Origin: an uncultured virus (IMG/VR IMGVR_UViG_3300025120_014716)
Lineage: Duplodnaviria; Heunggongvirae; Uroviricota; Caudoviricetes
Virus record (IMG/VR): IMGVR_UViG_3300025120_014716
Reading direction: 5' to 3' (one strand)
DNA length: 64,000 nucleotides
Position numbers and translations under genes: made by a program. Shown one piece after another: positions 4,821-55,236 of this stretch. The stretch's first letter is position 1, and every line of letters begins with the position of its first letter. The notes under the pieces were generated by a model, which did not search any database, had not been told where the DNA came from, and worked only from the letters and a program-made list of their open reading frames with translations.

Positions 4821-5171
4821 ATGGTATTAATTAAGTCAAGTGTAAAAGGTCAGGTGGACTGTAAGGTTCAAATTTGCAATGAAGTAGTCACTTTTGATAG
4901 TAAAGGTATTGCAGAGGTTGGATCAAAAGAGAAGGCAAATGAAATTGTAAAAAAGTGGTCACCTTTAATTGTAATTATCAAAGGTGAGGTTAAGTCAAAA
5001 ATTGAGGATCCAATTGATGGTCCAGATGAGTCAGGTCAAGAAATTGATTTAAGTGAGAAAACAGTTGATGAACTAAGAGATGTTTGCAAAGCAATTGATC
5101 TACCTTCAAAAGAATGGAAGAGTCTTAAAAAGTCAGAACTTATAGAGTACATTGAGGAAAAAATAAAGTAA
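4821..5171 (+). CDS. Virion-module protein with C-terminal Rho-N/HeH-like helical motif
   Basis: DLSEKTVDELRDVCKAIDL...LKKSELIEYI; position after capsid gene. Confidence 0.55.
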   Translation: MVLIKSSVKGQVDCKVQICNEVVTFDSKGIAEVGSKEKANEIVKKWSPLIVIIKGEVKSKIEDPIDGPDESGQEIDLSEKTVDELRDVCKAIDLPSKEWKSLKKSELIEYIEEKIK

Positions 5172-5175
5172 GAAC

Positions 5176-5958
5176 ATGCCAAGTATAACACTAAGGGCAC
5201 CATATAAAAGAAACCAGGGAGTTATGTCTCCATCAGAAATGATAGAAACATATTTTTTTGGTATTAGTTTATGTGATCCAAATGGAGATAAGATGAGTTC
5301 TGATGTTATCCAGTTGTATCTGGATTCAGCAACAGATGAAATAGAAAATTATCTTGACATAAGGATCAAAAAGCAGATCATAGAAGAGGACCTTGGTTTT
5401 TGGATGGATGACTGGAAAAATTGGGGTTACATAAGAACTTCATATCCAGTGGTCAAACCTCACTTAATTGAGGGATTTATAAATGATGTTAGGCAGGTTA
5501 CATATCCTCAGTCCTGGCTCAGTGCCAGAAAGACAAATGATGGAAGGACCTATTTTAGGACCGTAAACCTGGTACCAACAAATGGAACTACAGGAACAAA
5601 TTCTCAAATTTACAGTGGAGTAACTCCACATTTGGGTTTTTATGGGAACAAACATATACCAAACTACTGGCAAATTACCTATTGTACAGGTTTTGATAAG
5701 GTCCCAGGTGACCTGTTAAATGCCATAGGTAAATTGGCAGCTATAAATGTCTTCCATATTATGGGAGATTTGATCCTGGGAGCAGGTATTGCATCTCAGT
5801 CTATTGGAATAGATGGACTTAGCCAGAGTATTGCAACAACATCATCAGCAACAAATGCAGGTTATGGTGCAAGGGTTTCAGGATACATTGCAGACTTAAA
5901 ATTGTCAATGCCAAAACTCAGAGCATTCTATAAAGGAATGAACTTAACCAGTGCTTAA
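5176..5958 (+). CDS. Head-tail adaptor (neck) protein
   Basis: YLDSATDEIENYLD, ITYCTGF..VP.DL..AI, SQSIGIDGLSQS; synteny. Confidence 0.75.
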   Translation: MPSITLRAPYKRNQGVMSPSEMIETYFFGISLCDPNGDKMSSDVIQLYLDSATDEIENYLDIRIKKQIIEEDLGFWMDDWKNWGYIRTSYPVVKPHLIEGFINDVRQVTYPQSWLSARKTNDGRTYFRTVNLVPTNGTTGTNSQIYSGVTPHLGFYGNKHIPNYWQITYCTGFDKVPGDLLNAIGKLAAINVFHIMGDLILGAGIASQSIGIDGLSQSIATTSSATNAGYGARVSGYIADLKLSMPKLRAFYKGMNLTSA

Positions 5959-21593: not shown

Positions 21594-24500
21594 ATGCCAA
21601 CAACTAATTTAGGACAAATTTCAGCAATACACATTGGAACTACTGCACCATCAAATACAAAAATGATGTGGTATGATGACAATGTTGGTCAAAAAATATT
21701 AAAGTACTATGACATTGGAACAACAACCTGGAAGTCATTTGATGGAGTAGGTGTCTATTTGCCAATTGCAGGTGGAACGGTAACAGGTTTTGTTACATTG
21801 CATGCAAATCCAACAGCAAATTTACATGCAGCTACAAAGCAGTATGTTGATTCTGCAGTATCAGGAGCAGGAGGAACATTGGCAGGAGTACTTACAGGAG
21901 CAAATATTACTGGAGGAACTGACATTGTTATTAGTAATGGTGATACTTTAAATTTTTCTGTAGGGTCTGGAGGTAATTTAACTTCAGCAAGCACAACTGG
22001 GTCCAGGACCTGGACATTGCCAGATGTAAGTGGAACTTTATTGTTGGGTACTGGTACAGCAGGAAGGGTTGTAAGATGGGGTGCAGGAAATTCCTTGACT
22101 GAGGGAGTTCTACTTGACAGTGGAACTACAGCAGGTGCAGGTGTAATAAATGGATCAGTTCTATTTAATTCAGAGGGAACAAAAGCAGTGGCACTATCTG
22201 GTAAGTCAGCAAATACTACAAGTGGTATTGGTGTATATGGTGAGGCAAATGGAACTGCATCAGGCATAAATTATGGAAGTAGTTTTGGAGCCAGTGGAGG
22301 TGCAAGTAACTATTCTGCATATGGTATTGCAGATGGAGGATCAGTATCAAAAAATGCATATGGTGCCTACTTTGAAAGTAAAAACAGTGAAGGTATCCAG
22401 GTAGGTTCCTGGGGAGCAGTAACTGCATCATCAGCAACTCCAACAAAAGCAATTGGGGTAATGGGTTCATCCACTGTGGCTGCAGATGTAGCAGGTGCTA
22501 ACATTGCAGGTGCTTTTATATTACAGTCAAATGGGGGCACAGTAACTCCTGCAGACTTTATACAAAACAGGTCTGCAGTACAGGCTTATGTTAAGGGTAC
22601 TGGTATAACTACAGATCAGTATGCAGGTACTTTTTACAACCTTGCAACAAACTCAGCAACAAACACAGGTTTAATTGTATCTGCACAGAATGGAACAACA
22701 GCCAACTATGCAATACTTACAGCAGGAGGAAAGTCAGGTTTTGGGGTGCAGACTCCTACAAAAATGGTTGAGATCAGCAATGATCCTATTTCATCAGGTT
22801 TCATAACCTTTAATACTGCAGCTACATCCAATTACAATTTTGATATTTCTGTAAGTAATTCAGGTGCCAGGTTAAGTACAAGTCTTGTAGGTAGAAACAT
22901 TGAAATATCTTCTAACTCTGTAAGACTTTCAACATTTTTATCTACAGGAGGTGGTTTGGCAGTTGGTCCACATACATCAGTAAGTTCTCACTTACATGTT
23001 AAGTATGGTGGAGGTTTGGCAAATGCAGATGGGTCCATAAGAGGTACCATGAGCAATAACACTCCATATGTTTATGCAACTCCTGCACTAAATAATTCCC
23101 TGGTACTTGAAAATGAAGACTTAACTGCAAATAACAGTTCAGTTGTTGTTTTTAGAGGAAAAGATACAGGTGGTACTGTAAAGAATTTGGCATACATGGG
23201 TGCTTTATACCATACCAGAGTAGGTTCAAGTGCATCAGCAGATTTAATATTTGGTACTGCAGCAGCAAATACCATTTCTGAGGCAATGAGAATACATTCC
23301 ACTGGAAATGTAAGTATTGGTGCAGAGACAAGTACAGACAGACTTCATGTACTTTCAGATGTCGATGCACAAAAGGGTATTGTAGCCAGACAAGACAATA
23401 CAGGAACAAATGCCAAGTCATTTATACAAGTGGCATCCTTAGACTCTGGTACTGATTATACAATAGGGAGTTTAATCTCATCAGCAACAGGATCAGTTGG
23501 ATCTGGTACCTGGGCAGGAGAGCAAAAATACTTTGAAAAAGCAGTACATCTTATTTCAGATGGTGTACCAGGAGCAATAAATATATATGCAAGGGGAACA
23601 ACCTCTCCATTTAGGTTATTTACTGGAGGTCTTAGCTATAGTGAGTCAAACTTAAGGCTTACCGTTGATCAAGCAGGTAAGTTTGGATTTAACCTTGCTA
23701 AGGCAGGGTACACAGGTACAGCAGTTGATACTCAGTTAAGTGACTTTCATGTTGGTACAGGGGCATTATTCCAAACAACTGGAACCACTGCAGGTGATAG
23801 CTTTATAGTTCAATCACATGAGTCAGTGTCAAACCAGGGAGGTCTTGTTATTACAAACTCATCATTATTTGGTACAGGACTAACTAATATTGGAGGTTTT
23901 AAATTTGTTGCAAAAAATAATTCAGCAACTGGAGGTTTTTCAGATGATGAGTTAACCTTTGGTTTGGTTGATGCCTCTGCACCAAGTACTTTCATAAACT
24001 CACTATTGTATTTTAATGGTGGTAAAGTTGGTGTTGGTGAGACAGTGGCAAATGAAACACTCACCGTTGGAGGGGCAATGTCATTAAAAAGCATAGGTTC
24101 TACAGTTACAGCTACCTCAACTTATGGAAAGGTATTTGTGAAACCAGACAATGACATATACTTTCTTAAGTCAGATGGGACTGAATATAAATTAAACCAG
24201 GACCCAGGACTTACAGGAGCAGGTGTCGAGAACCAGGTAGCAGTGTATAGTGGTGTTTCTACTACTCAACTTGAAGGTGATGCAAATTTTACCTGGGATG
24301 GTACAACTCTTACAGTAACTGGGGACTTGGTTGTAGGTGGAACAACAACAACAGTAAATAGTACTACAGTAACCGTAAAGGATCCAGTTTTTACTATAGG
24401 TGATGATGCAGTAAATGATGCCAAGGACAGAGGTGTTGAGTTTAAATATAATTCAGGAGGAGCAAAAGTTGGCTTTTTTGGTCATGATGACTCACTTGGA

Positions 24501-27431
24501 AGGTTTACCTATATAAAAGAGGCAACAAACACAGCAGAGGTGTTTTCAGGGACTCCAGGTGATGCAATGTTTGGAACTGCATATTTAAGTGGACTTAACC
24601 TGGGAACAGGATCTGTGGCTACATACTTTATGACTACAGATGGATCTGGAGCAGGATCATGGGGAACTATAAATGATTTAGTAATAGACTCAACTCCAGT
24701 TGGAACCACTGACTTTGTAATGGTGTGGGATGCATCAGCAAATGACCATAAAAAAGTACTCCTTTCAGTAATATCTGCAGGAGCATCACATAACTTACTT
24801 GATGGTGTAACACATCCAGATACTCAAGCAGCAGTGGTCCAAAGAGGTGATCTTATTGTTGGTAAGGGAAGTACTGCAAAATGGGATAGGTTAGCAAAAG
24901 GAACAGCAAGTCAATACCTTAAGTCAGATGGTACTGACTTACTTTGGGGAACAATAGACATATCTGAGGTTGCAAATGCAATTGATGGGTCTGGTACTTT
25001 AAACCAGGTGGCTTATTGGTCAGATTCAGATACACTTACTTCAAGTGCCAACTTCATTTTTGATGGCTCAAATGCATCATTATTTGGTGCAACTGTAGCA
25101 GGATCAGGACTACATATAAATGATCCAGGATCATCAAAAACAACAGCCTTAAGCGTTAACAATTTTGCAAATAGTGCAGGATCAGAAAACTATGGGGTGT
25201 TATCATCAGTAGGAAGTGGAGGTGCATATGATGCAATAGGTATTTATGGTCTTGTTACCACAGGGGGAAGTACAACTCAAAGCATTGGTATTTACGGTAA
25301 GGCAGTAGCCTCATCAGCAGGTGTCAATATTGGAGGTAAGTTTCAAGTGTCAAACTCAGGATCTGGAGCACACTACTCTTTACAGTTGATTGATGGAAAT
25401 GAAGGTACTACAGGAAGATTTTTCAAGAATGTTACTACAGTAGGTCAGGGTCAGTGGGCAGATGTTGTTTTGGCAGATGTAACAGATGTGACAGCTACAG
25501 CAGCAGAGGTTAACTTGTTAGACTTAGCAGGATTAACTACAGGACATGTATTAGCAGCAGATTCAGCAACAACAGCATCCTGGAGAAAATTACTTGGATC
25601 TGAGATCACAAATGATGTAAACTTTGTAAATGGATCAGGATCAGCAAATCAATTAGCATACTTTACTGACTCAGATACACTGGCATCAAGTTCAAGTGTT
25701 ACTTGGAATGGAGCCAAGTTCCAAGTTTTAAAAGCTACTCAAAATGACATTGTACAATTTGAAGAGACAGGAGGTAAGTTGATTTTTGGTGGAGCAACTG
25801 GAACAGGAAATGGAGGCTCAAACCTTATACAACAAACTAAATTCAATACTGGTTCATCTACAGTTAGTGAGCACAGAGATTTTGGTGGAAATATTGGTCT
25901 TCAATTTGTAAACTTTACTACCACAGGTGGACTTAATAGCTATGGGGTTATTGAATACAAAAAAACAGATGGTACTTTGTATATTCATTCAGGTGATGAC
26001 ATACTTGTTGGTGGAAAAGATACTCTTACCTTGGGTCATGGTTTGGCAACTGCCAGTACAAGAAGACTCTTTGAAAATATAAGACTAAACACTACAGATG
26101 AAATAAAATTAACATCAGGAGCAGGAATTTTTAAAATTACAGGGGTAACTGGAACAAATGGGTCCACTACTTTTGAAGATACCTCAAGTGTAACTGAAGG
26201 TATTCAATATGCTGCAAATTATGGTGGATCTTTTACAGATAGATCTCTTATTGATAAAGGTTTTGCAGATGGAAGGTATGCCTTAACAGCATCAGGTTTA
26301 GCCAATGGAGATAAGGGAGATATTACAGTGTCTGGTACAGGTTCAGATACCTGGACAATAGACAATGATGTAGTTACTTTTGCTAAAATGCAAAATGTAA
26401 ATACTTCGAGTATTCTTGGAAGATATAGTGCAAGTTCTGGAGATGTAGAGCAATTAAGTATTGGCACAGGTCTTAACTTAAGTGGAGGAGGTGATTTAAC
26501 TGCAGATCTTAGTGGAAGTGGTGCATCAGGAAGGTCTGCAAGGTTTACAGGAACAAATGTATTGGGAACTGGATCTTTTTATGACAATGGAACAAAAGTG
26601 TCTATAGGTGCTGCACTATCAGGATCAAATGATGCAGCAATTATGGTTACAGGAACTACAAATAGTGGCTCACTTTATGCAACAAATACAAATACAAGTG
26701 GACTTTCTAATGCAATTCAGGCATTAGTAAATAGTAACAATAACAATAATTCAAACTATGGTATTTGGTCAAGGACAACAAATCCTTCAGCAAATGGAGT
26801 GGCATATGCATTTGTTGGAGAGGCACAGGATGTGTCTTCAAATACATTGACAGTATTAAACGGAAGTACATCATTAAAGAATGCAGGAGGTATCTTCAGG
26901 GCAAATATTACTGGTACAAATACAGCATACGGTGTCGTAGGTGTAGCAGAGTCATTAGCTGCCCAGAGTAATGCAACTTATGTTGGTGGTAGGTTTATTG
27001 CAAAGAGAGCAGGTGCAAATTATGCCTTACAATTAGACGATTCAAGCCAGGCAGTAGGTAAGTATCTTAGGTGTGTTTCTACCACTGGTTATGCCTTATG
27101 GCAAGATGGTGATGAACTTACAAAGTCTTTATACCTGGAAGATCCTACAGCTACAGATGACATAGGTATGTGGGAACCAGGTGTGGCAATTACAATAACC
27201 AAAGTAGTGGTTGAAATAATTGGGTCAGGAACAATTGACTTTAATATTGGACATAGTAGTAACCAGGCAACTGACTTGTTTACAAGTGATGTACAGGCAA
27301 CAACAACAAAACAAACACTAACAAGTTTTGCTGATGCATCATGTAATGCAGCTAACTACATACATTTTCAGGCAAGTGCTAAGGGAGGGTCTCCATCAGC
27401 TATAAAAATGACAATAACTTATACAGAATAA
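21594..27431 (+). CDS. Large modular tail fibre (1945 aa)
   Basis: Gly/Ser/Thr/Ala-rich; YLPIAGGTVTG...HAATKQYVD; repeated GxxNQxAYxxDSDTL linkers. Confidence 0.8.
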   Translation: MPTTNLGQISAIHIGTTAPSNTKMMWYDDNVGQKILKYYDIGTTTWKSFDGVGVYLPIAGGTVTGFVTLHANPTANLHAATKQYVDSAVSGAGGTLAGVLTGANITGGTDIVISNGDTLNFSVGSGGNLTSASTTGSRTWTLPDVSGTLLLGTGTAGRVVRWGAGNSLTEGVLLDSGTTAGAGVINGSVLFNSEGTKAVALSGKSANTTSGIGVYGEANGTASGINYGSSFGASGGASNYSAYGIADGGSVSKNAYGAYFESKNSEGIQVGSWGAVTASSATPTKAIGVMGSSTVAADVAGANIAGAFILQSNGGTVTPADFIQNRSAVQAYVKGTGITTDQYAGTFYNLATNSATNTGLIVSAQNGTTANYAILTAGGKSGFGVQTPTKMVEISNDPISSGFITFNTAATSNYNFDISVSNSGARLSTSLVGRNIEISSNSVRLSTFLSTGGGLAVGPHTSVSSHLHVKYGGGLANADGSIRGTMSNNTPYVYATPALNNSLVLENEDLTANNSSVVVFRGKDTGGTVKNLAYMGALYHTRVGSSASADLIFGTAAANTISEAMRIHSTGNVSIGAETSTDRLHVLSDVDAQKGIVARQDNTGTNAKSFIQVASLDSGTDYTIGSLISSATGSVGSGTWAGEQKYFEKAVHLISDGVPGAINIYARGTTSPFRLFTGGLSYSESNLRLTVDQAGKFGFNLAKAGYTGTAVDTQLSDFHVGTGALFQTTGTTAGDSFIVQSHESVSNQGGLVITNSSLFGTGLTNIGGFKFVAKNNSATGGFSDDELTFGLVDASAPSTFINSLLYFNGGKVGVGETVANETLTVGGAMSLKSIGSTVTATSTYGKVFVKPDNDIYFLKSDGTEYKLNQDPGLTGAGVENQVAVYSGVSTTQLEGDANFTWDGTTLTVTGDLVVGGTTTTVNSTTVTVKDPVFTIGDDAVNDAKDRGVEFKYNSGGAKVGFFGHDDSLGRFTYIKEATNTAEVFSGTPGDAMFGTAYLSGLNLGTGSVATYFMTTDGSGAGSWGTINDLVIDSTPVGTTDFVMVWDASANDHKKVLLSVISAGASHNLLDGVTHPDTQAAVVQRGDLIVGKGSTAKWDRLAKGTASQYLKSDGTDLLWGTIDISEVANAIDGSGTLNQVAYWSDSDTLTSSANFIFDGSNASLFGATVAGSGLHINDPGSSKTTALSVNNFANSAGSENYGVLSSVGSGGAYDAIGIYGLVTTGGSTTQSIGIYGKAVASSAGVNIGGKFQVSNSGSGAHYSLQLIDGNEGTTGRFFKNVTTVGQGQWADVVLADVTDVTATAAEVNLLDLAGLTTGHVLAADSATTASWRKLLGSEITNDVNFVNGSGSANQLAYFTDSDTLASSSSVTWNGAKFQVLKATQNDIVQFEETGGKLIFGGATGTGNGGSNLIQQTKFNTGSSTVSEHRDFGGNIGLQFVNFTTTGGLNSYGVIEYKKTDGTLYIHSGDDILVGGKDTLTLGHGLATASTRRLFENIRLNTTDEIKLTSGAGIFKITGVTGTNGSTTFEDTSSVTEGIQYAANYGGSFTDRSLIDKGFADGRYALTASGLANGDKGDITVSGTGSDTWTIDNDVVTFAKMQNVNTSSILGRYSASSGDVEQLSIGTGLNLSGGGDLTADLSGSGASGRSARFTGTNVLGTGSFYDNGTKVSIGAALSGSNDAAIMVTGTTNSGSLYATNTNTSGLSNAIQALVNSNNNNNSNYGIWSRTTNPSANGVAYAFVGEAQDVSSNTLTVLNGSTSLKNAGGIFRANITGTNTAYGVVGVAESLAAQSNATYVGGRFIAKRAGANYALQLDDSSQAVGKYLRCVSTTGYALWQDGDELTKSLYLEDPTATDDIGMWEPGVAITITKVVVEIIGSGTIDFNIGHSSNQATDLFTSDVQATTTKQTLTSFADASCNAANYIHFQASAKGGSPSAIKMTITYTE

Positions 27432-36270: not shown

Positions 36271-36906
36271 ATGAATAAAAAGATAGTAAACGGTCAAAAT
36301 TATATAATTTTTGACCTTGAGACAGGTGGGTTAGACTCTTCTAAGCATGCAATAACAGAGGTAGCTATGCTTGCAATAGATGGGGTTACCCTGGAAGAGA
36401 TTGACAGGTACAGTACATTTGTTCAACCATATGGATTGGAGTATGAGCAGGAGGCATTTGACATAACAGGAATAACCATGGACATGATTAATACTGGTAA
36501 AGCAGCCAGGCAGGTTTGTAATGAAATGGTGAAGTTTTTTAAGTCAATAGGAACTGGTAGAAAGAAACCAATTTTATGTGGACATAACATAATTTCATTT
36601 GACATACCATTCTTGGATAATTTGTTTAAAACATATAAGAAGGACCTATTTAAAACTGTCAATGAGCATGAGTTTATGGATACAATGTGGATGTCCAGGC
36701 ACATATGGACAGATCCTTCTATGAAACACAATTTAACCGTTGCCTGTGAAAGGGAGGGGGTTGAGATCATAGATGCACATAGGGCAATAAATGATGTTGC
36801 TGCAAACACTGAATTGCTCAAGTCTTACTTAAAAAGGCTCAGGGGTGCAGGTGAAATATCTACAAATAATGATCAACATAACTACAGAGATACGTTTAAT
36901 TTTTAA
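36271..36906 (+). CDS. dnaQ: DEDDh 3'-5' exonuclease (Pol III epsilon-like)
   Basis: FDLETGG, GHNIISFDIPFL, MDT, AHRAIND. Confidence 0.9.
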   Translation: MNKKIVNGQNYIIFDLETGGLDSSKHAITEVAMLAIDGVTLEEIDRYSTFVQPYGLEYEQEAFDITGITMDMINTGKAARQVCNEMVKFFKSIGTGRKKPILCGHNIISFDIPFLDNLFKTYKKDLFKTVNEHEFMDTMWMSRHIWTDPSMKHNLTVACEREGVEIIDAHRAINDVAANTELLKSYLKRLRGAGEISTNNDQHNYRDTFNF

Positions 36907-41875: not shown

Positions 41876-44800
41876 ATGAATACACAACTACTTCACCAGT
41901 GGATAGACAACAATGGACTAAACGCAAATTTTCTTGATGATAGGCTGTTTACTATAGGAGAGGATCAGTTTTATTTTTTAGATCCTGGAGATAGGGTTAT
42001 AACAGGTGACTTCAACCTTAATGTAACTAATAGTGAATTTCAATTTGTTTCTAAAATAAACTGTAAAAATTTCTGTTTTAAGTTTGGTAATAATTTTTAC
42101 TATACCTCCATAGAAAAATTTGAAAGTCCAGATTTTAATTTACTTAAATATATAGGTGCCAGGAAGTCTGAACTTGGAGAGGTTGACTTTTCTTTTTTAG
42201 GATTAAGGGGTAGGTATGAGATATGTAATGGATCAGGAGAGTATAGTGACTGGATTAAAAAGGCAAAATTTAATGGCTTTAATTCACTGGGTATATGTGA
42301 GCACAATACCCTGGCAGGCACACTTCCTTTTCAACAGGAGTGTAAGGGTGCAGGAATTGATTTTATTCTTGGAGAAAGTATATCTGTAGAGGATGACTCT
42401 TTTTACCAGTACAATGCAAAGCTATATGTACTGAGTGAAGAGGGTTGGTTTAATTTACTGTATATAAACAAGATTATAAATGTTGACAATGAAACCAATA
42501 AGAAAATATCAGAAAGTGAACTTACTGAGTATAGCAAAGGATTGGTTTTTGTTTTTGGACCAGATACATATTTGAGCAGTGACAGAGTTAAACTTATTAA
42601 AGGATCATTTGATAAAGTTTTTTACCAATTTGATACCACTAAGTTTAAGGGTTATGAAAAGGACAAAGCCAGGCTATTATCATTAAAAAATTATATAGAC
42701 AATTTTACAGAACATATAGATCCAATACTTATAAATGATGCATTTTACCTTGACCAGGAGTACTCACATGTAAAAAAGATACTTAATACCATTGGAGGAG
42801 TAAAGTTCCAGAGTCAGTCAAAGGATCAGCACATGAAGTCCCTGGATGAAGTATTTATGCAGTGGGCAAATTTATTTGGAGAGGAGGATGAAAGACTTTT
42901 TGATATTTTTTATACTGGCATTGACTCATCCATGTGGATCTCTGACAATGCTGAGTTTGAGATAGAAACAGGAGCCAGACATCTTCCCTTATTTGAGCAT
43001 GATGGCAAAGAGTCAAATGATGAGTTGTTCTTAAGGTTATTAGAGGAGGGCATGGAAAGGAAGGGTTTGTCCAATAAAGATGACTACTGGGATAGATTAG
43101 GTAACGAAATTGAGGTTATCTCAAAGGGTGGAGTAATTGATTATTTTTTGATCCTATGGGACATTGTTGAGTGGTGTAAGTCTAAAAATATACTGACAGG
43201 CATAGGTAGAGGTTCTGCAGCAGGATGTTTAGTTTCATACTTATTAGATGTAACAGGAGTTGATCCAATTGAATATGGTTTGTTATTTGAAAGATTCCTA
43301 AATGAGGGTAGGGTTCAGACATCTCTTCCAGATATTGATACTGATTTTGAGGGGGAGAGAAGAGATGAGGTTAAGAGATATATGGAGCAAAAGTATGGGT
43401 TGGAGTATGTCTGTTCAGTTGGTACATATGGTACTTTTAAGCTAAAGTCAGCACTTCAGGAGATAGGTAAAAAATTTCACCTGGATGGCAAAGCACTTAA
43501 TTACATTTCAAACATGTTGGAGTTGGGTCCTGGTATGGATACTGACATAACTCAAATATTTAAGCAGGCATTGGAGAAACCTCAATTAAAAAAGTTTGTA
43601 AATGATAATCCACATATTATAGATACTATTCCAATTATTCTCAAAAATGTCAGAAACCAATCTGTACATGCATGTGCTACATTGATACTTCCAAAAAAGG
43701 ATCAGTATGGTAGGGACAGAAATATATATAACTGGATGCCAGTTAAGATAATTGATGGAGTTTTGGTCAGTGAGTGGGAGGGTGGTTATTTAGAAGATGC
43801 AGGTTTTTTAAAAGAGGACATCCTGGGTATTGCTCAATTAGATAAATTTAGGGGTGTATTTGATAAAGTTAAAAAGAATAAAGGAATTGACTTATCATTT
43901 GACAGCCTGGACCTTGAAGACATAAATATGTATGACTTATTTCAAAAGGGTCATTCATCAGATGTATTCCATTTTGGTTCCAGAGGTCTAACTGGTTATT
44001 CTCAGGAGGTTTGTCCCACAAATATAAATGAGATGATAGATATGATCTCTTTATATAGACCAGGAGCCATGGAATCTCAGGCACACAATGATTATGTAAA
44101 GTTTAAATTTGGAGTGAAGGAGCCAGAGTTTGACTATATGTTGGAAGATGTTACCAAAGATACCTATGGTTTGTATATTTACCAGGAGCAGGTTATGAAG
44201 GCAGTCCAGGTTTTGGGTGGGTTTGACCTGGTTGTTGCTGATGACATCAGGAAAGCAATGGGAAAGAAAAAGATGAAGTTGATCAGGGAGTACCAGAGCA
44301 AGTTTGTTGAGGGAGCCATGGAAAGGGGTTGTGGAGAGTCAGATGCCATTGTTATATGGAATAAACTTGAGGCATTTGCAGGGTATGGGTTTAATAAGTC
44401 CCATGCAGCAGCCTATTCAATAACTGGCTGCATGTCACAGTGGTTGAAGGTAAACCATCCATTGGAATTTTGGACCACAGCGTTTGAGTGGGCAAAGCAA
44501 GATGAAATCCAAAGGTATATATCAGAGTTATCAAAATTAGAAAATGGGGTATCAATTGTTCCTCCATGTGTGAATAAGTCATCCACTGAGTTTATTTCAG
44601 ATCCAGGAGTGAATGAGATATATTGGGCAATTAACAAAATATCATTTGTTGGTGTTACAGCAACAAAGGCAATTGTAGACTCAAGAAATGACCTTGGTGA
44701 CTTTACATCATTAGAAAATTTTTGTGATAGAATTGAAAAAAGATCTGTAAATAAAAGGGTTATGGAAAACTTAATCCTGGGAGGTTGTTTTGATAAAATT

Positions 44801-45316
44801 TGCAATGTTGTTTCTATAGTTGACAGGAGGGCAGTTTTAAGTAGATATTATGACCTTGAGTCTATAAAAGATCATGCAAGAATTAAACTACCAACTGAGG
44901 CAAAGTTTGCCTGGTTCTGGGTACTTAAACAAAAAGAAGTTTCAAAGTTTGGACATTTTGATTTTCATACCATGATTCTTAGAAGTAAGTTAGGTAGTAT
45001 AATATCTTTATATGACCATCCAGAAAACATGTTGTTGGAAAAAAGTTTGGACAAGTCATTTATTCAGGCAGGTACTATAAAGGATCTGGTTCTAAGGAAA
45101 ACTAAAAAGAAAGAAGAGTTTGCCTCTATACTGTTAGAGTGCAATGATGAGGAGATATATGTGTTAATATGGGCAAAGCAATGGTATAAGTTTAAAGAAA
45201 TGGTTGAGGGTGCTACATTGGGTATATTGATAATTTCAGGAACAGTTAGGTTTGATGGGTTTAAAAAAGTAAATGTTTTACAGTCCAACAATAGTACTAA
45301 AATTGATGTTTTTTAA
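41876..45316 (+). CDS. dnaE: DNA polymerase III alpha subunit (family C)
   Basis: PHP domain, GRGSAAG, LFERFLN, PDIDTD, IYQEQVM, YGFNKSHAAAY, C-terminal OB fold. Confidence 0.95.
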   Translation: MNTQLLHQWIDNNGLNANFLDDRLFTIGEDQFYFLDPGDRVITGDFNLNVTNSEFQFVSKINCKNFCFKFGNNFYYTSIEKFESPDFNLLKYIGARKSELGEVDFSFLGLRGRYEICNGSGEYSDWIKKAKFNGFNSLGICEHNTLAGTLPFQQECKGAGIDFILGESISVEDDSFYQYNAKLYVLSEEGWFNLLYINKIINVDNETNKKISESELTEYSKGLVFVFGPDTYLSSDRVKLIKGSFDKVFYQFDTTKFKGYEKDKARLLSLKNYIDNFTEHIDPILINDAFYLDQEYSHVKKILNTIGGVKFQSQSKDQHMKSLDEVFMQWANLFGEEDERLFDIFYTGIDSSMWISDNAEFEIETGARHLPLFEHDGKESNDELFLRLLEEGMERKGLSNKDDYWDRLGNEIEVISKGGVIDYFLILWDIVEWCKSKNILTGIGRGSAAGCLVSYLLDVTGVDPIEYGLLFERFLNEGRVQTSLPDIDTDFEGERRDEVKRYMEQKYGLEYVCSVGTYGTFKLKSALQEIGKKFHLDGKALNYISNMLELGPGMDTDITQIFKQALEKPQLKKFVNDNPHIIDTIPIILKNVRNQSVHACATLILPKKDQYGRDRNIYNWMPVKIIDGVLVSEWEGGYLEDAGFLKEDILGIAQLDKFRGVFDKVKKNKGIDLSFDSLDLEDINMYDLFQKGHSSDVFHFGSRGLTGYSQEVCPTNINEMIDMISLYRPGAMESQAHNDYVKFKFGVKEPEFDYMLEDVTKDTYGLYIYQEQVMKAVQVLGGFDLVVADDIRKAMGKKKMKLIREYQSKFVEGAMERGCGESDAIVIWNKLEAFAGYGFNKSHAAAYSITGCMSQWLKVNHPLEFWTTAFEWAKQDEIQRYISELSKLENGVSIVPPCVNKSSTEFISDPGVNEIYWAINKISFVGVTATKAIVDSRNDLGDFTSLENFCDRIEKRSVNKRVMENLILGGCFDKICNVVSIVDRRAVLSRYYDLESIKDHARIKLPTEAKFAWFWVLKQKEVSKFGHFDFHTMILRSKLGSIISLYDHPENMLLEKSLDKSFIQAGTIKDLVLRKTKKKEEFASILLECNDEEIYVLIWAKQWYKFKEMVEGATLGILIISGTVRFDGFKKVNVLQSNNSTKIDVF

Positions 45317-49315: not shown

Positions 49316-50377
49316 ATGAATAAGAAAGAAGTAAAAGACATAGGACTTGTAATAACAGATACCCATCTTAGTGAAGGTACTGAAAAGGTCAACATTAGTA
49401 TTTTTAGGCAGGCAATAGCAACATGTTTGGAGAGAGGTATTAAGAAAATATACCATATGGGAGATGCAATGGAGAGCAGAAAGGCACAAAGCCTCCAGGT
49501 CCTTAAGACATTTGGTAAGATATTGATGGAAATTCGTGAGGCAGGATTGGAAATTGATTTTATTCCAGGTAACCATGATAAGACAGACTACCAGTCTGAA
49601 AATTCATTCTTAGATCCATTTTCTTACCATCCAGGAGTAAATATATGGTCCAAGGGTACGGTCAATAGGGTAGGAGATAATTTGTCACTATTCCAGGTAC
49701 CTTTCTTTGATGAAAAGTCAGGTATGTATGGGGAAATGATAAAGCCATACCTGGACATTGCTGCACAGGAGAAAAAGCAAGGAATGACAAATATCCTTCT
49801 AACTCACATTGGAGTTAATGAGGCAGTGATGAATGGAGGATCTGTTATTGAAGGTCACCTGGATGGCAGCCTTTTTGATGCATTTGATAATGTTTATGTT
49901 GGTCACTATCATGACTACCAGGAGTTAAAAAAGGGTAAGATAGTATATGTAGGATCTGCATACCAGTCTAATTTTGGTGAGGATGATCGAAAGGGGTACC
50001 ATATCCTTAATTCAAAGGGTGGTATGGAGTTCATCCAGGCACACTTTCCAAAGTATATAAAGATCTCTATTGACATGGAAAAGGAAAAGGATTTTGATCT
50101 TACAGAAATTAAAAAGGAGTATGAGGGGTCTACTGACAATATCAGAATTGAGTTCACTGGGACTAAGGAGATGCTTGCTAAGGTTGACAAAAGAGAGTTT
50201 GAGGCACTTGGTATGGATGTAAAAAAGAAAGAGGAGTCAGTTGATGTATTGGATTATGATGACTCTGAGTCAACATTTACTAAAGAGTCTATAAAAGATG
50301 AGTGGGAAGTCTTTTCAAAAGATAGTATTGAAATAAAGTCAAAAGGTTTGGAATATATTGAGCCATTATTTATATAA
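49316..50377 (+). CDS. sbcD: SbcD/Mre11/gp47-like metallophosphoesterase nuclease
   Basis: TDTHL, MGD, PGNHD, LTH, GHYH, YVGSAYQSNFGED. Confidence 0.9.
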   Translation: MNKKEVKDIGLVITDTHLSEGTEKVNISIFRQAIATCLERGIKKIYHMGDAMESRKAQSLQVLKTFGKILMEIREAGLEIDFIPGNHDKTDYQSENSFLDPFSYHPGVNIWSKGTVNRVGDNLSLFQVPFFDEKSGMYGEMIKPYLDIAAQEKKQGMTNILLTHIGVNEAVMNGGSVIEGHLDGSLFDAFDNVYVGHYHDYQELKKGKIVYVGSAYQSNFGEDDRKGYHILNSKGGMEFIQAHFPKYIKISIDMEKEKDFDLTEIKKEYEGSTDNIRIEFTGTKEMLAKVDKREFEALGMDVKKKEESVDVLDYDDSESTFTKESIKDEWEVFSKDSIEIKSKGLEYIEPLFI

Positions 50378-50392
50378 ACAGTTAAGTTATTT

Positions 50393-51373
50393 ATGGGAAA
50401 ATTAGAGGATGTTTTTAAGAAAATAAACAAGACATACGGTGCAGGATCAGTTGGTAATTTGAATGACATGCCATTGCATGACATTGATACTATTTCATCA
50501 GGATCACTTGTATTAAATGATGCACTTGGAGTAGGTGGATGGGCAAAAGGTAGGATCACTGAAATATATGGTCCAGAGTCATCAGGAAAAACTACTTTGT
50601 GTATTCATGCCATTGCAGAATGCCAAAAGAAAGGAGGTAAGGCAGCCTTTATTGATATGGAGCATGCATTTGATAAAGAGTATGCAGAAAACCTGGGAGT
50701 TGATACAGATGCACTTATATTTGCTCAACCAGATTATGGAGAGCAGGCACTGGAGATGATAGACATGCTTATTGAGACAGGTGAGGTTGATCTATTAATT
50801 GTTGATTCTGTAGCTGCCATGATACCTAAAAGAGAACTTGAGGGGGAAATGGGAGATGCCAATGTTGGAGTCCTGGCAAAAATGATGTCACAGGCAATGA
50901 GAAAGTTGGTTGGAAAAGTTAGTAAGACAAATACTGCAATGATATTTATAAACCAACTGAGAGAAAAAATTGGAGTTATGTTTGGATCTCCTGAAGTTAC
51001 AACAGGAGGTAGAGCCTTAAAGTTTGCAGCCTCAGTAAGAGTTGACATCAGGAGAACTGGGAGCCTTAAAAAGGGAGAGGAGGTTATTGCAAATACTGTA
51101 AAGGTTAAGATCACCAAAAATAAAGTAGCACCTCCTTTTAAAATAGCATTACTGGAAATAGCATTTGGTGTTGGAGTTGACCTGGTTGCTGAGGTTTTAA
51201 CAATATGCATTGATGCTGATGTTGTTAAAAGAAATGGATCCTGGTATAGTTATGGTGACATAAAATTGGGTCAGGGGTTACCTGCAGTTAAAGAATTGCT
51301 AAGAGATAACCAGGAACTGTTTTGTGAGTTGAAAGATCTTGCTGAGATGGCATTTGAAGAGGCAAAAAAATAA
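50393..51373 (+). CDS. recA: RecA recombinase
   Basis: EIYGPESSGKTT, FIDMEHA, VDSVAA, FINQLREKIGVMFGSPE.TTGG.ALKF. Confidence 0.97.
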   Translation: MGKLEDVFKKINKTYGAGSVGNLNDMPLHDIDTISSGSLVLNDALGVGGWAKGRITEIYGPESSGKTTLCIHAIAECQKKGGKAAFIDMEHAFDKEYAENLGVDTDALIFAQPDYGEQALEMIDMLIETGEVDLLIVDSVAAMIPKRELEGEMGDANVGVLAKMMSQAMRKLVGKVSKTNTAMIFINQLREKIGVMFGSPEVTTGGRALKFAASVRVDIRRTGSLKKGEEVIANTVKVKITKNKVAPPFKIALLEIAFGVGVDLVAEVLTICIDADVVKRNGSWYSYGDIKLGQGLPAVKELLRDNQELFCELKDLAEMAFEEAKK

Positions 51374-51380
51374 TTAAAAT

Positions 51381-51585
51381 AAACTCTCCAAGCTAATGGA
51401 TAAGCGAGTGAATAGGCACATCAACTTAGAAAGATTTAACTCAAAAGTATCTTTAAAGAAAACTATGAGGGAAGTACGTTCACAACACTTCCAAGAGTGT
51501 TAGCTTGCCTGAAAAGGCTTTATGAAGTTAGGTGGCACTGCGTTGTCCGTTACTGTCAATCCTACTTGGAGGACTTGGAGAGTTT
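51381..51585 (+). ncRNA. Candidate ~205-nt structured RNA of unknown class
   Basis: 12-bp terminal stem AAACTCTCCAAG/CTTGGAGAGTTT enclosing nested helices with G-U pairs, a GAAA-tetraloop hairpin and two complementary loops; terminator follows. Confidence 0.7.
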
Positions 51586-51589
51586 TTAT

Positions 51590-51626
51590 AAAGGAATTAA
51601 CTGAAAAGTTTTTTCCTTTTTTTTTT
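51590..51626 (+). terminator. Terminator after the structured RNA
   Basis: AAAGGAA..AACT-GAAA-AGTT..TTCC followed by T10. Confidence 0.65.
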
Positions 51627-51633
51627 CATATTA

Positions 51634-51664
51634 TTTGGTGGTTAAACAAATTTGTTTATCTTTG
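51634..51664 (+). promoter_or_regulatory. Bacteroidota primary-sigma promoter
   Basis: TTTG (-33), 19 nt, TATCTTTG (-7). Confidence 0.75.
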
Positions 51665-51711
51665 TAGAGGTGATGGGGGTGAGAGGTGAGTGAGTTCTTT
51701 GAGAAATTATC

Positions 51712-51853
51712 TGGTTAGTGATGGTGGGTTGTTGATTGTCGGAGGTCTGTAGAGGAGTAATTGCCTTTCCTTGTAGTTGCAAATGCAAGAGAACTAAAAA
51801 ACAATTTTCAATTTGCTTGGTTTTCACAAGAGGGTTCGATTCCCTCATAACCA
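51712..51853 (+). ncRNA. Expanded tRNA-like RNA (not a canonical tRNA)
   Basis: T-arm GAGGG-TTCGATT-CCCTC; TGGTTA/TAACCA acceptor-like stem; ~110-nt multi-arm interior. Confidence 0.6.
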
Positions 51854-51894
51854 ACTATTTTATATTATTATTAACAATTTAAAATTTAATTATT

Positions 51895-52281
51895 ATGTCA
51901 TTTATTTTTGTAAAAAGTCAACAGCAGCAAATTTTTGAAAAACTTCAGTTGATAGTTGATTTGGGACTGGACAAAATTGTTAAGGTTCCTAAAAAATTCC
52001 AGGATTTTAAATTTGAGATCAAAATGGTTACTGGAGGTATTCAAATCAGTTTTAGATTTGATCATGTTTACTTTCACTACAAACACTTTATTGGTGATGA
52101 CTTCTTTCTTTTTGAGGAAAGCTACAGCCAGGCAAGTGGTAGACAGTGCAAGAGTTACAGAGAGGGTCAAAAAGGTTTGGCAAAGGCAGAGGCATTTATT
52201 GAAGAGGTTGCTAAAAAGATTCAAAAGTCTGAAAGGTCTGAGAGTTTCCAAATTCAAAAAGCCATTGAAGAGTTGGTGTAA
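51895..52281 (+). CDS. Hypothetical protein
   Basis: ORF with AT-rich leader downstream of the promoter. Confidence 0.6.
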   Translation: MSFIFVKSQQQQIFEKLQLIVDLGLDKIVKVPKKFQDFKFEIKMVTGGIQISFRFDHVYFHYKHFIGDDFFLFEESYSQASGRQCKSYREGQKGLAKAEAFIEEVAKKIQKSERSESFQIQKAIEELV

Positions 52282-53274: not shown

Positions 53275-55236
53275 ATGTGGAAGTTAAAAGAGTTAAGATT
53301 GACCAATTTCATGAGTCACAAAGATTCAGTTTTAAATATGCCATCAAATGATGCCCATATGATTATTGGGATAAATAATGATGATGATGGTCAGGAAAGC
53401 AATGGATCAGGAAAGTCAGTTTGTAATGAGGCAGTGGCACTTGCTCTTACAGGATCTGCATTAAGAAAGGTTAAAGATTGTGATCTCATTCATTATGGAG
53501 AGGATGAGGCTCAGGTTACTCAAACACTTGAAAATAAGTCACAGGATAAAACCATGGCTATCACCAGGACTCTTTTTGCTAAAAAAAGCAAGTCAAGTAC
53601 TCTTTATGTAGAGGTGAATGGAGTTGAGGTAACTACATTTCCAACTGTAAAGGATGGTAATTTATGGATCCTGGATCAAATTGGAGTATCCAGAGAAGAC
53701 TTATTGAATTATTACCTGGTAAGTGAAAAGTCATCATCATTTTTCACTGCATCAGATACTATTAAAAAGCAAATTGTTGCCAGGTTTAGTAACACTGACA
53801 TATTAATACCTATAAAAGAAAAAGTTGTAAATGATACCAAGTCCCTGGTCCAGGTAAGGGAGGCATTGGATTTACAGTTGGTAAAGTTACAGGAAAGGTG
53901 TGATGTCTACAGGGAGCAGTTGACCAATGCCTCAAATCAAGATGCTGAGAGAATTAAGCAGGGAAGGATTGACATGATCCAAAGATCTATTGATGACTAT
54001 GCCAAAAAAGTAAAAGAAAATGAGGATAGTATAATTGCCCATGAAAAGCAGATGCCCATTCATAACCAGGAGATGGACCTACTAAAAAAGGAATTGTCCC
54101 AGGTCCCAGAACCTGCAGATCATAGTGCAGACATTAAAGAAATTGAAGATGTTTTGAGCCAGGCACAAAATGAGGCAGAGGTGTCTATACTGGCAATAAA
54201 AGAGGCAAGGTCTAATCTGAGAGATGTTGAAGGGTTTAAGTCAGATGCAGAGGCAAAAATAAAGTCATCCATCCAATGTCCAAAGTGTGATCATAGTTTT
54301 ATACTCAGAGACAAAAACTTTAATATTCATGAGACAAGGGAGTCTTTATTTGAAATGGACTCACTTATTAATTCATTTGAAAATGAGATCCAGGACCATG
54401 ATACTAAAAGAGTTGAGTCAGAGGGACTGGTTGATGAGGCAAGGTCCAGTATAAAAGGTTTAAGATCAGATATGCAGCAGCATGAGGTTGCCAGGAATAA
54501 AGTAAACAGAAAAATAAGGCAGTTACAATTTACCATTGATGACATAAATGATCAAATAAAAAGATGTACTTCAATTATCCTGGAGTCTAAAAATAAAAGC
54601 CTGGAAGGTTTTGACAGCATAGATAGAGTAAGGTCTGAAAAGATTGAGGATCCTCAAATTGAGATAAACAAATCAATTAAAGTAGTTGAGGTCCAGATCC
54701 AGGATAAGGTGGATGAGATTGACATAGCCAAAAATAACATTGTTAAGGCTAATGAATTTCAGGCTATATTTACAAAGTTTATGACTCACCTATCAAATAA
54801 AGCAATAAAGTCAATTGAGTCCAGGGTAAATAGTTACCTGGAGTCTATGGGTAGTAATTTAATGGTACAATTTGAAGGGTATAAGGTTTTATCAACTGGT
54901 AAGATCAAAGAAAATATATCAATTGTTGTATTAAGAAATGGTATGCCAGAGTCATTTTTTGACAGTTACTCAAAAGGTGAGAGAGGTAGAATTAATGTAG
55001 CAGGTATCCTGGCATTAAATGATCTTTTAAACTCAAGTTCAAGTCCAGGATGTGGTTTAGATTTCGTTTGTCTTGATGAGGCTATGGATGGAATTGATAG
55101 CCTGGGAGTAGGATCTGTTATGAATGCCTTAAATACTTTGGGACAGCCAATTTTAGCAGTATCACACATAGAACCAAAGGAGCCATATAGAAACACAATT
55201 TATTGTACAAAAGACAAAGGGGTATCAACTATTTAA
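53275..55236 (+). CDS. sbcC: SbcC/Rad50/gp46-like SMC ATPase
   Basis: NFMSH, SNGSGKS, coiled coil with CPKC hook, YSKGE signature, CLDEAMDGID, VSH. Confidence 0.92.
   Translation: MWKLKELRLTNFMSHKDSVLNMPSNDAHMIIGINNDDDGQESNGSGKSVCNEAVALALTGSALRKVKDCDLIHYGEDEAQVTQTLENKSQDKTMAITRTLFAKKSKSSTLYVEVNGVEVTTFPTVKDGNLWILDQIGVSREDLLNYYLVSEKSSSFFTASDTIKKQIVARFSNTDILIPIKEKVVNDTKSLVQVREALDLQLVKLQERCDVYREQLTNASNQDAERIKQGRIDMIQRSIDDYAKKVKENEDSIIAHEKQMPIHNQEMDLLKKELSQVPEPADHSADIKEIEDVLSQAQNEAEVSILAIKEARSNLRDVEGFKSDAEAKIKSSIQCPKCDHSFILRDKNFNIHETRESLFEMDSLINSFENEIQDHDTKRVESEGLVDEARSSIKGLRSDMQQHEVARNKVNRKIRQLQFTIDDINDQIKRCTSIILESKNKSLEGFDSIDRVRSEKIEDPQIEINKSIKVVEVQIQDKVDEIDIAKNNIVKANEFQAIFTKFMTHLSNKAIKSIESRVNSYLESMGSNLMVQFEGYKVLSTGKIKENISIVVLRNGMPESFFDSYSKGERGRINVAGILALNDLLNSSSSPGCGLDFVCLDEAMDGIDSLGVGSVMNALNTLGQPILAVSHIEPKEPYRNTIYCTKDKGVSTI

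Follow-up and report, generated by a model that had tools for sequence, protein, structure and literature searches.

A tRNA-like element with a canonical T-arm downstream of RecA in a marine tailed phage: a candidate non-decoding tRNA mimic

Plant mitochondria harbor t-elements, which the report describing them places at messenger RNA (mRNA) ends and characterizes by a perfectly conserved GGTTCRANYCC arm set within non-canonical cloverleaves (PMC1920247). Some of them were identified through a search for this T-arm motif itself; the authors ascribe the cuts at these sites to RNase Z and/or RNase P and also describe C/A tails that are not encoded (PMC1920247). An element of comparable appearance lies in a 64,000-nucleotide stretch of DNA, hereafter the window, from an uncultured tailed virus (IMG/VR record IMGVR_UViG_3300025120_014716), in the spacer between the RecA gene and the next open reading frame (ORF), ORF128. 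Its core is a canonical T-arm on the plus strand, GAGGG-TTCGATT-CCCTC at 51830-51846, with a 5-bp stem and a loop that fits GGTTCRANYCC, followed in register by the 3' acceptor strand ATAACCA and a discriminator-like A51854 (51847-51854). The element is tRNA-derived, and with a probability of roughly 45% we read it as a non-decoding tRNA mimic resembling t-elements or RNAC of phage T4, in which selection acts on the upper half only. On this reading what is kept is the T-arm and an acceptor-like stem ending in CCA-A, while remodelling or drift has altered the D, anticodon and variable parts; such an element would most likely act as a cutting or stabilising signal rather than a decoder.

The comparison with t-elements covers the conserved GGTTCRANYCC arm, the non-canonical fold, the coding-strand orientation and the position, 40 nt before the ATG of ORF128. 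T-elements differ in being organellar and in having their mRNA ends mapped by experiment, whereas the phage element is known from sequence alone and shows no sequence kinship to them. The resemblance is best taken as one of 'works like' and not of membership. A second point of comparison is T4 RNAC (species 1 RNA), whose role is called unknown in two papers (PMC3014915, PMC9697503). RNAC is 139 nt long (NC_000866, 70908-71046), against about 142 nt for the long form of the window element, and likewise has a canonical T-arm at its 3' end and an imperfect seven-position acceptor. Read from the sequence, the RNAC acceptor is CGAUUCG/CGUUUCG with two U.U oppositions, the minimum free energy (MFE) fold pairing the ends somewhat differently; long hairpins replace the D and anticodon arms, and a 10-bp hairpin lies directly 5' of the T-arm. 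Both thus combine a T-arm at the 3' end and an acceptor-like closure with a body of some 140 nt unlike that of a tRNA, a likeness of architecture only: local alignment of the two sequences finds nothing better than 12 of 13 nt in the T-loop (E 0.16), the global alignment is uninformative, and the comparison used no rnaC covariance model. Moreover, RNAC ends an eight-tRNA cluster, next to rnaD, whereas the window has no tRNA gene, and RNAC is strongly structured (z -4.6 to -4.9) whereas the window element has a z of -0.3.

Among phages of Bacteroidota, the Lak megaphages of Prevotella carry tRNAs with 'enigmatic' introns (PMC6784885). Our material parallels these insertion-bearing phage tRNA genes most closely in a gene of a relative (L002, 1566-1668, see below) and perhaps in the window element. 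The Lak tRNAs become canonical once a single insert is removed and are typed by tRNAscan-SE, whereas the window element does not become canonical. Finally, the tRNA-like domain of transfer-messenger RNA (tmRNA; RF00023) also stacks a T-arm on an acceptor and has a long helix before it; in contrast to tmRNA, the element has no G3-U70, no tag reading frame and no pseudoknots, and it scores 15.2 bits where 47 are required. Full-text literature searches on two subjects, introns in the tRNAs of phages and tRNA-like signals for RNase P in phages, brought up, judging by titles and the beginnings of abstracts, no description of such elements between phage genes.

The T-arm is the only statistically unusual part of the element, and it is also its sole strongly supported, conserved feature; both the tmRNA model and a plastid model align to it. 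Of 300 dinucleotide shuffles of the window, 2.0% contain a strict T-arm (five Watson-Crick pairs, G53:C61, loop TTCRANY) and 53% a looser one; the string GGTTCGANTCC with at most one mismatch has one match against 0.75 expected. Conservation is seen in a relative. With RecA as the query, 27 viral and 65 metagenome loci were retrieved at identities of 60% or less; of these, only L002 and L029 carry tRNA-like elements. Among the first 27 loci, T-arm motifs occur only in L002 (record G002), five of them on the coding strand, and ARAGORN calls no tRNA there. L002 is the sole relative with the same gene neighborhood, its RecA being 56% identical, and downstream of RecA it carries an element, el4, that reads GAGGG-TTCGACT-CCCTC-ACTTCCA-C and ends 47 nt before an SbcC-like ORF. 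The two T-arms are identical at 16 of 17 positions and are followed by A-NNN-CCA at the matching place, and the two spacers are unalignable outside these ~24 nt; by sequence and position, el4 appears to be the counterpart of the window element. Its 5' strand is ambiguous as well, either TGGAAGA (giving 193 nt) or TGTAAGT (66 nt; 18.6 bits with RF00005). Elsewhere, the exact 24-mer of T-arm and 3' strand is found in no other viral contig, a 22-mer is found in none of 185,579 bacterial and archaeal species genomes, and blastn of the element against isolate phages returns T-loop-sized matches only.

These observations bear on whether the hairpin arose by chance, or is an ordinary structure of a 5' untranslated region unrelated to tRNA. 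Loose T-arms are common in shuffled sequence, and even a 2% event must arise across many windows; the acceptor pairing, too, is not significant. Set against this are the same T-stem, loop and A-NNN-CCA at a syntenic place in L002, a CCAACTA tail in common with tRNA-like genes of two other phages (below), and a location on the coding strand, behind a promoter-like motif, in a spacer larger than any other in this part of the window. A chance origin is, in our judgment, very unlikely.

What the T-arm is paired to on its 5' side is a different matter. An earlier note, made from this DNA alone, had located the T-arm at 51830-51846, ATAACCA at 51847-51853 and a complementary TGGTTA at 51712-51717, and all three are indeed there. 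In this long-range option the candidate 5' strand TGGTTAG (51712-51718) would oppose 51847-51853, with six Watson-Crick pairs between 51712-51717 and TAACCA (51848-51853), then G51718 opposite A51847. A partner of such quality is common by chance: a strict T-arm has an in-register partner (at least 6 of 7 pairs within 420 nt) in 1.7% of shuffles, compared with the 2.0% that contain a strict T-arm at all, and the real sequence offers three in-register partners, at 51639, 51653 and 51712. Because about 85% of chance T-arms find an in-register 5' partner, the acceptor pairing counts for nothing. Annotators should note that one perfect T-arm and a complementary strand far away from it are weak grounds for proposing any particular long-range fold. 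A local partner had been overlooked, TTGGTT at 51817-51822, which forms six Watson-Crick pairs with AACCAA at 51849-51854. In isolation this hairpin is worth -10.8 kcal/mol, with bulges of 7 nt on the 5' side and 2 nt on the 3' side, and a local stem of at least six pairs arises in 5.3% of shuffled upstream sequences; in context its probability is at most 0.15. The MFE of the element is -35.0 kcal/mol, and forcing the long-range acceptor gives -34.4, that is 0.6 above the MFE, while the local-stem form lies 3.2 kcal/mol above it. The models would thus place the 5' boundary at either 51712 (~142 nt) or 51817 (~38 nt), the local partner being equally viable.

In the long form the spacing of a tRNA is reproduced exactly. 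The seven-position acceptor and the 5-bp T-stem stack without a spacer, and the acceptor is followed by two nucleotides (UG), a four-pair hairpin with a GGG-containing 11-nt loop, one base, and then arm 2. The segment 51719-51740 can accordingly be read, from its letters, as a putative U8-G9-like TG, a weak D-arm-like hairpin (ATGG/TTGT, one Watson-Crick and three G.U pairs, loop TGGGTTGTTGA) and C51740, with the tRNA spacing of 2 nt before and 1 nt after the hairpin; a 6-bp version of this arm in the earlier note has a pair probability of 0.02. Downstream come arm 2 (51741-51768; GGAGGT/GCCTTT with three G.U pairs and a 16-nt loop, probability at most 0.07), arm 3 (51770-51789; CTTGTA/TGCAAG around the 8-nt loop GTTGCAAA, probability 0.26-0.52) and arm 4 (51789-51825; GAGAACTAA/TTGGTTTTC, nine pairs including two G.U, a 19-nt loop, probability 0.54-0.80), whose 3' strand includes the alternative local partner TTGGTT. 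Mean pair probabilities over 51705-51860 are 0.81 for the T-arm, 0.74 for arm 4, 0.28 for the long acceptor, 0.26 for arm 3, 0.07 for arm 2 and 0.02 for arm 1. The four-arm, 142-nt model proposed from the sequence holds insofar as the complementary segments exist (51720-51725/51735-51740, 51741-51746/51763-51768, 51770-51775/51784-51789 and 51789-51797/51817-51825); as a fold it is not established. Arms 1 and 2 consist nearly entirely of G.U pairs, arms 3 and 4 cannot both be complete because both use G51789, overall stability is that of shuffled sequence, and the acceptor pairing is at chance level.

Measured against an ordinary tRNA, the candidate D-arm is weak although correctly spaced, no anticodon arm with a 5-bp stem and 7-nt loop is present (the candidates have a 16-nt loop, in arm 2, or a 6-bp stem with an 8-nt loop, in arm 3), and the molecule as a whole scores too low. 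ARAGORN finds no gene anywhere in the window in its default and tmRNA modes, Rfam has no match to the element at gathering score, and RF00005 has no match at E<=1 in G001, a virus record (69 kb, rated 67% complete) that is 100% identical to the window over 51400-51900 and therefore provides no independent information. The earlier view that this is neither an ordinary tRNA nor a tmRNA is borne out. It could still be a working decoder whose extra segments are removed after transcription, in the manner of the Lak introns. Insertion-bearing phage tRNAs do exist, in Lak phages of Prevotella (PMC6784885) and in L002 1566-1668, which has a 29-nt insertion and is otherwise canonical; with introns allowed and scoring relaxed (-ps), ARAGORN also returns a tRNA-Glu(ttc) at 51726-51855 with a 51-nt intron. 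This model appears only with -ps, however, its acceptor is mismatched, and its D-stem is 3-4 bp with wobble pairs; at the default threshold the intron mode (-i) yields nothing in the window and calls two intron-bearing genes in L002. At least two separate removals would be needed, neither the element nor the relatives' inserts match any Rfam intron or ribozyme family, and no RNA ligase, kinase or endonuclease candidate is seen among 58 window ORFs scanned against PHROGs (11 of these also against Pfam, with ORFs shorter than 100 aa elsewhere in the window excluded). We would allow a spliced decoder only a small chance.

A reduced tmRNA or tmRNA-derived RNA is effectively refuted. The one relevant match in a local E-value search is that of the Rfam tmRNA model, which takes in arm 4 together with the T-arm at 15.2 bits (E 0.0007, 901 bases searched); this is far below the cut-off, and the acceptor is left unaligned. 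Position 3:70 is G:C, so that the absence of G3-U70 noted earlier is correct, and the ARAGORN tmRNA mode is empty. It had also been remarked that a possible resume site is followed by no in-frame stop before the T-arm, which holds: reading from GCA at 51779, the frame runs ANARELKNNFQFAWFSQEGSIPS and ends only at TAA 51848-51850, inside the acceptor strand. The topology differs as well: arm 4, which precedes the T-arm, is a hairpin closed by a loop of 19 nt, and its equivalent in the Rfam model encloses 292 model positions, which we take to be the pseudoknots and the tag reading frame. The suggestion of a Y-RNA or tmRNA origin is not supported; Y-RNA (YrlA) models have no Rfam match at gathering score or locally at E<=10, and no Ro/TROVE protein occurs among the scanned ORFs.

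Three further identities were considered and set aside. An attP copy of the 3' end of a host tRNA is unlikely, with the 22-mer in 0 of 185,579 species genomes and no integrase recognised in the 58 ORFs. Descent from tRNA-Tyr, suggested by a CUGUAGA loop and by a phage tRNA-Tyr in L153, is not specific: 1.2% of shuffles reach the score of the 5' half, and in the comparison of 5' halves (z 2.56, rank 2 of 65 tRNA 5' halves) Ala, Phe and His are equally close. A coding role for the region was rejected, the overlapping 70-aa ORF on the minus strand (51642-51854) and a 55-aa ORF (51522-51689) having no Pfam match.

The relatives show what can become of tRNA genes in this group of phages. In L002, between ORF408 and SbcD, a tRNA gene occupies 1566-1668. 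Its 7-bp acceptor is perfect and its D- and T-arms are canonical, but its 35-nt anticodon loop (a 29-nt insertion) holds a T-arm-like hairpin; it scores 46.2 bits with RF00005. The segment 4526-4748 of the same locus has a Leu-type D-arm, A73, a perfect acceptor and T-arm, and about 150 extra nucleotides in its body. Homologues of this Leu-like expanded tRNA (~220 nt) occur in L029 (3086-3280) and in L104/G003 (1326-1557). Across the three phages the acceptor, D-arm and T-arm are conserved and the bodies are unalignable; the discriminator is A in the two complete copies, the L029 copy being cut at the contig end, and the two copies folded are unremarkable (z -1.65 and -0.19). In G003, rated 100% complete, the 229-nt expanded element is the only tRNA-related gene: ARAGORN calls no tRNA there, and the sole Rfam tRNA match is this element, at 15.3 bits and below cut-off. 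At 2284-2384 of L029 lies an element of 101 nt that combines a T-arm with a perfect acceptor of 7 bp (AATCGTG/CACGATT) and that ARAGORN does not call in any mode. Standard finders miss all but one of the insertion-bearing or expanded tRNA genes of these relatives. As separate observations, the 101-nt element of L029 is followed by some 700 nt (2385-3080) presumed to be non-coding, and in L104 (1088-1556) a 77-aa ORF and the Leu-like tRNA stand between RNA-1, a structured RNA treated below, and a conserved trailer; they appear to behave as an insertion/deletion cassette, because in L095 RNA-1 abuts the trailer directly.

Smaller units built on the same upper half also recur. Searching viral contigs for GGGTTCGAYTCCCTC-NNNN-CCA gave 103 stretches, 80 of which were retrieved, holding 83 matches; ARAGORN places 37 of the 83 in ordinary tRNAs (Ile, Asn, Met, Gln and others) and makes no call at 46. 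One contig, G005 (L176/L226), has four copies of a 46-nt unit, GGCUA-AAAGGUUCAUUG-GGAGGG-UUCGAUU-CCCUCC-UAGCC-AACUA, all on the minus strand (2120-2165, 4583-4628, 4932-4977 and 5378-5423). They lie between small ORFs, with 21-30 nt separating the end of each from the ATG that follows, and in one of them a compensatory AGCUA/UAGCU change is seen. Three units of this design, again between small ORFs, stand in the GC-rich sequence of L125, a viral contig unrelated to G005 (73-116, 443-486 and 770-813), and single ones occur in L140, L180, L188 and L121. In this design an acceptor-like stem is stacked on the T-arm and a stemless, GG-containing linker takes the place of the D-arm. In the window the element occurs singly, and it may be of the long, 142-nt form. 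The tRNA-like domain of tmRNA has a stemless, GG-containing, D-loop-like linker of this kind, as in the minihelices of G005 and L125. Local minihelices are not a general rule: a local stem of at least five pairs is present in 19 of 69 distinct pattern matches against 18% in shuffles, and with no overall enrichment that idea was rejected. Only a subset with an 11-14-nt GG-containing linker, picked by eye, stands out, and a MAFFT alignment of the minihelices leaves their 5' strands out of register.

A CCAACTA tail after the stem is common to the window and 3 of the 83 matches, namely two of the G005 copies and an unannotated gene (36612-36683) inside the tRNA cluster of Cellulophaga phage phi38:1. 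In addition, the 13-mer TTAACAATTTAAA in the leader before the ATG is common to the window and one G005 minihelix copy; as a repeated motif of the window it was discarded, with 11 matches at up to two mismatches against 13 expected. No protein is shared between G005 and the window at E<=1e-3, counting G005 ORFs of at least 60 aa on the element-bearing strand, and it is the element, not the phage, that the two have in common. The phi38:1 cluster (L107, NC_021796) holds two unannotated tRNA-like genes among the annotated ones, at 1153-1224 and 1561-1650 of the locus; the former reads as tRNA-Ile(UAU)-like with a bulged T-stem, and the latter scores 36.6 bits with RF00005, above cut-off.

A common pattern runs through this phage group. 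The T-arm and acceptor, and often the D-arm, are canonical and conserved. The anticodon and variable regions, by contrast, are abnormal in form, cannot be aligned and have unremarkable folding energies; the elements occur singly or repeated, on the coding strand, just before ORFs, in genomes otherwise without tRNAs. Because the upper half is kept and the anticodon and variable regions are aberrant, selection would seem to act on the part read by processing enzymes and not on decoding.

How a processing signal of this kind would be transcribed can be sketched from the surrounding sequence. A terminator-like hairpin on the plus strand at 51590-51626 (AAAGGAA..TTCCTTT, an inner GAAA-loop hairpin, then a run of T; -10.8 kcal/mol for the fold of 51586-51634) closes the unit of RecA and RNA-1 upstream of the element. 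A consensus terminator scan does not list this hairpin, its stem having too few G-C pairs, and a combined sigma-70 and terminator scan of the window was uninformative. Just beyond it, at 51634-51664, the Bacteroidota-type promoter-like motif TTTG-N19-TATCTTTG proposed earlier proves to be an exact match, implying a start near 51670. The pattern has seven matches in the window against 2.5 expected, a number reached by 5 of 100 shuffles, and three of its five plus-strand matches, placed against the ORF lists, fall in spacers upstream of genes; the enrichment is borderline and suggestive only. Because a terminator-like hairpin stands upstream of a promoter-like motif, a separate transcription unit starting near 51670 is plausible. 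It would take in ORF128 along with the element, there being no terminator to part them. The unit would begin with a purine-rich leader (51665-51711), which is removed if the RNA is cut at 51712. After A51854 no CCA is encoded, CTA coming next, and an A/T-rich 40-nt leader (51855-51894), with TTAACAATTTAAA at 51871-51883, reaches to the ATG of ORF128 (51895-52281, plus strand), the first gene 3' of the element and one with no family match.

If the element is indeed a non-decoding mimic, transcription from 51634-51664 would proceed together with ORF128 and later genes, and host tRNA-maturation enzymes would recognise the upper half of the transcript. RNase P would then cut at the 5' side of the acceptor stem, whichever of the candidate strands (51712-51717 or 51817-51822) provides it, and RNase Z or exonucleases, possibly with the CCA-adding enzyme, would act after A51854. 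The outcome would be a small, stable tRNA-like RNA set free and a downstream mRNA whose 5' end lies about 40 nt before the ATG. This is the mechanism put forward for the t-elements of plant mitochondria (PMC1920247).

Several results weigh against this interpretation. The acceptor partner is ambiguous, with no covariation for either option, and the MFE z-scores of the element (-0.30 and -0.33) put its stability at the level of shuffled sequence. When the fold is computed from the putative start (51668-51860), the T-arm, with which the purine-rich leader competes, falls to a probability of 0.21, and both acceptor options fall to 0.00. With a terminator and promoter just upstream, no cut is needed to separate the unit from RecA. 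Homology to the L002 counterpart stands on some 24 nt. The only independent copies, contigs from runs X3 and X4, differ from the window by 1-2 substitutions and an insertion of 2 nt, and these changes leave every stem untouched. Four sequencing runs were examined for contigs (two DNA and two RNA libraries), and contigs of the two RNA-library runs do not cover 51606-51843, although the absence of a contig proves nothing. Finally, decay of tRNA genes does occur downstream of RecA: L029 has an ordinary tRNA-Arg(UCU) in the same spacer, and L002 4426-4477 (el3) is a decayed copy of it, identical to L029 through the T-loop, with the 3' strand of the T-stem and the acceptor lost.

The decay seen in L002 gives substance to the proposal that the window element is itself a decaying tRNA pseudogene, possibly of class II, with insertions and substitutions and no present function. 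The G.U-rich arms 1 and 2, a fold energy no better than that of shuffles, the empty RF00005 search and the gap in RNA-library contigs all agree with it. A relative with an ordinary tRNA where this copy has merely decayed was what the earlier note had named as speaking against a mimic; such a tRNA is present in L029, decayed in L002, but it is a different gene from the element described here. The T-arm of the element, moreover, is perfect and matches L002 el4 at 16 of 17 positions across a RecA divergence (56% identity) that erased the flanks, whereas the truly decayed tRNA-Arg has already lost its T-stem and acceptor. The 520-bp spacer between RecA and ORF128 that holds the element is exceptional in this tightly packed genome, and other phages, too, have elements reduced to the upper half, in some cases as conserved repeats. 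We consider a pseudogene unlikely, though a possibility to be taken seriously.

The variants also touch on a third explanation, a trans-acting tRNA mimic or sponge for an anticodon nuclease, another tRNA-targeting defence, a modification enzyme or a synthetase; a decoy for tRNA-targeting defence nucleases had been offered as an example in the earlier note. Contig X3 (51614-51874) has one difference from the window. X4 (51649-51863, 215 nt) has T51750A, G51752A and a GA inserted behind 51680, in the leader. The arm-2 loop begins with CTGTAGA, that is an intact C32-U33-NNN-R37-A38 anticodon-loop pattern, and the two substitutions of X4, its only ones, fall on the second and fourth bases after CU and turn CTGTAGA into CTGAAAA, or CU-GUA-GA into CU-GAA-AA, with the pattern kept. 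Size and architecture, as noted, match T4 RNAC. The loop, however, is one of 16 nt on a weak stem with a probability of at most 0.07; the two substitutions come from one contig of depth 2.6, where sequencing errors are possible, and could be a single mutational event; and el4 of L002 has no clear counterpart of the arm-2 loop. No defence or counter-defence gene was recognised nearby in the PHROG and Pfam scans (PADLOC was not run), and the likeness of the 5' half to phage tRNA-Tyr is unspecific. A trans-acting mimic is, all told, rather improbable. Its most specific version, to which we give a slim chance, is a decoy with a strain-variable anticodon-loop surface under diversifying selection, Tyr-like CU-GUA-GA in one strain and Phe-like CU-GAA-AA in another. 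In such a decoy the acceptor/T-arm half would ensure maturation and stability while the loop baits anticodon nucleases or readers, and RNAs of the T4 RNAC type could belong to the same functional class. Whatever weight is not assigned to these explanations goes to something else.

Should the non-decoding mimic be the right interpretation, marine Bacteroidota tailed phages would be using tRNA look-alikes as handles for host tRNA processing, in sizes from 46-nt minihelices to bodies of about 230 nt; such use has so far been documented mainly for organelles. A class of phage RNAs overlooked by Rfam and the usual tRNA finders would gain a definite role open to experiment, and T4 RNAC could be approached by comparison. 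For annotation there is a warning as well, as a phage genome that counts as 'tRNA-free', such as G003, can still hold tRNA-derived genes.

The window comes from the genome of a lytic tailed phage. Nearly all of its ORFs are on the plus strand, GC content is about 35% and GC skew is strongly positive. PHROG matches comprise head, tail, baseplate and terminase proteins and a block of replication and recombination genes, which includes DNA polymerase (41876-45316), SbcD (49316-50377), RecA/UvsX (50393-51373) and SbcC (53275-55236) together with thymidylate synthase, resolvase and RNase H; the scanned ORFs include no recognisable integrase, RNA ligase, kinase or tRNA enzyme. ARAGORN finds no tRNA gene in the 64-kb window and none in the 69-kb record G001. 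The stretch that holds the element is present in DNA contigs from seawater and marine metagenome runs, and the host is probably a member of Flavobacteriia, which we infer because of the kinship of RecA (about 66% nucleotide identity to RecA of Chryseobacterium and Tenacibaculum phages), a promoter motif of the TAnnTTTG type and the tail in common with phi38:1. Searches for relatives of ORF128 in viral contigs returned none, and a search with SbcC likewise brought no related loci. In the tail/baseplate region, a plus-strand ORF of 1945 aa (21594-27431) is without a PHROG match at E<=1e-6.

Upstream of the element, directly after the RecA stop codon, lies the structured RNA referred to above as RNA-1 (51381-51588, plus strand). 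It folds at -60.1 kcal/mol with a z of -3.13, and only 1 of 200 shuffles is as stable. Six distinct IMG/VR sequences contain it behind different genes (L095, L096, L097=L100, L098, L099=L101 and L102), and it appears to be an undescribed structured RNA family, with no match in Rfam, isolate phages or species genomes. Invariant blocks run AAACUCUCCAA-GCUAAUGGAUAAGC..GUGA, then UCACAACACUUCCAAGAGUGUUAGCUU, then ACUUGGAGGAC-UUGGAGAG-UUUU, with hairpins of variable length between them. The RNAalifold consensus has 37 pairs, five of them compensatory, all in the closing helix and all from one sequence; the loop CUUCCAAG could pair with CUUGGAGG as a pseudoknot, both being invariant. A second probe for RNA-1 was abandoned, as its three further loci were all unrelated GC-rich sequence. 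RNA-library contigs of two studies cover 51383-51496/51506 with three differences each, for which DNA carry-over is possible.

On the other side of the element, the segment 51870-51909, comprising part of the ORF128 leader and the first codons (ATTAACAATTTAAAATTTAATTATTATG...), is about 85% identical to contigs with unrelated flanks and may be a promoter or leader module common to marine phages. One of the matching contigs, 91 nt long and at a depth of 150, comes from an RNA library.

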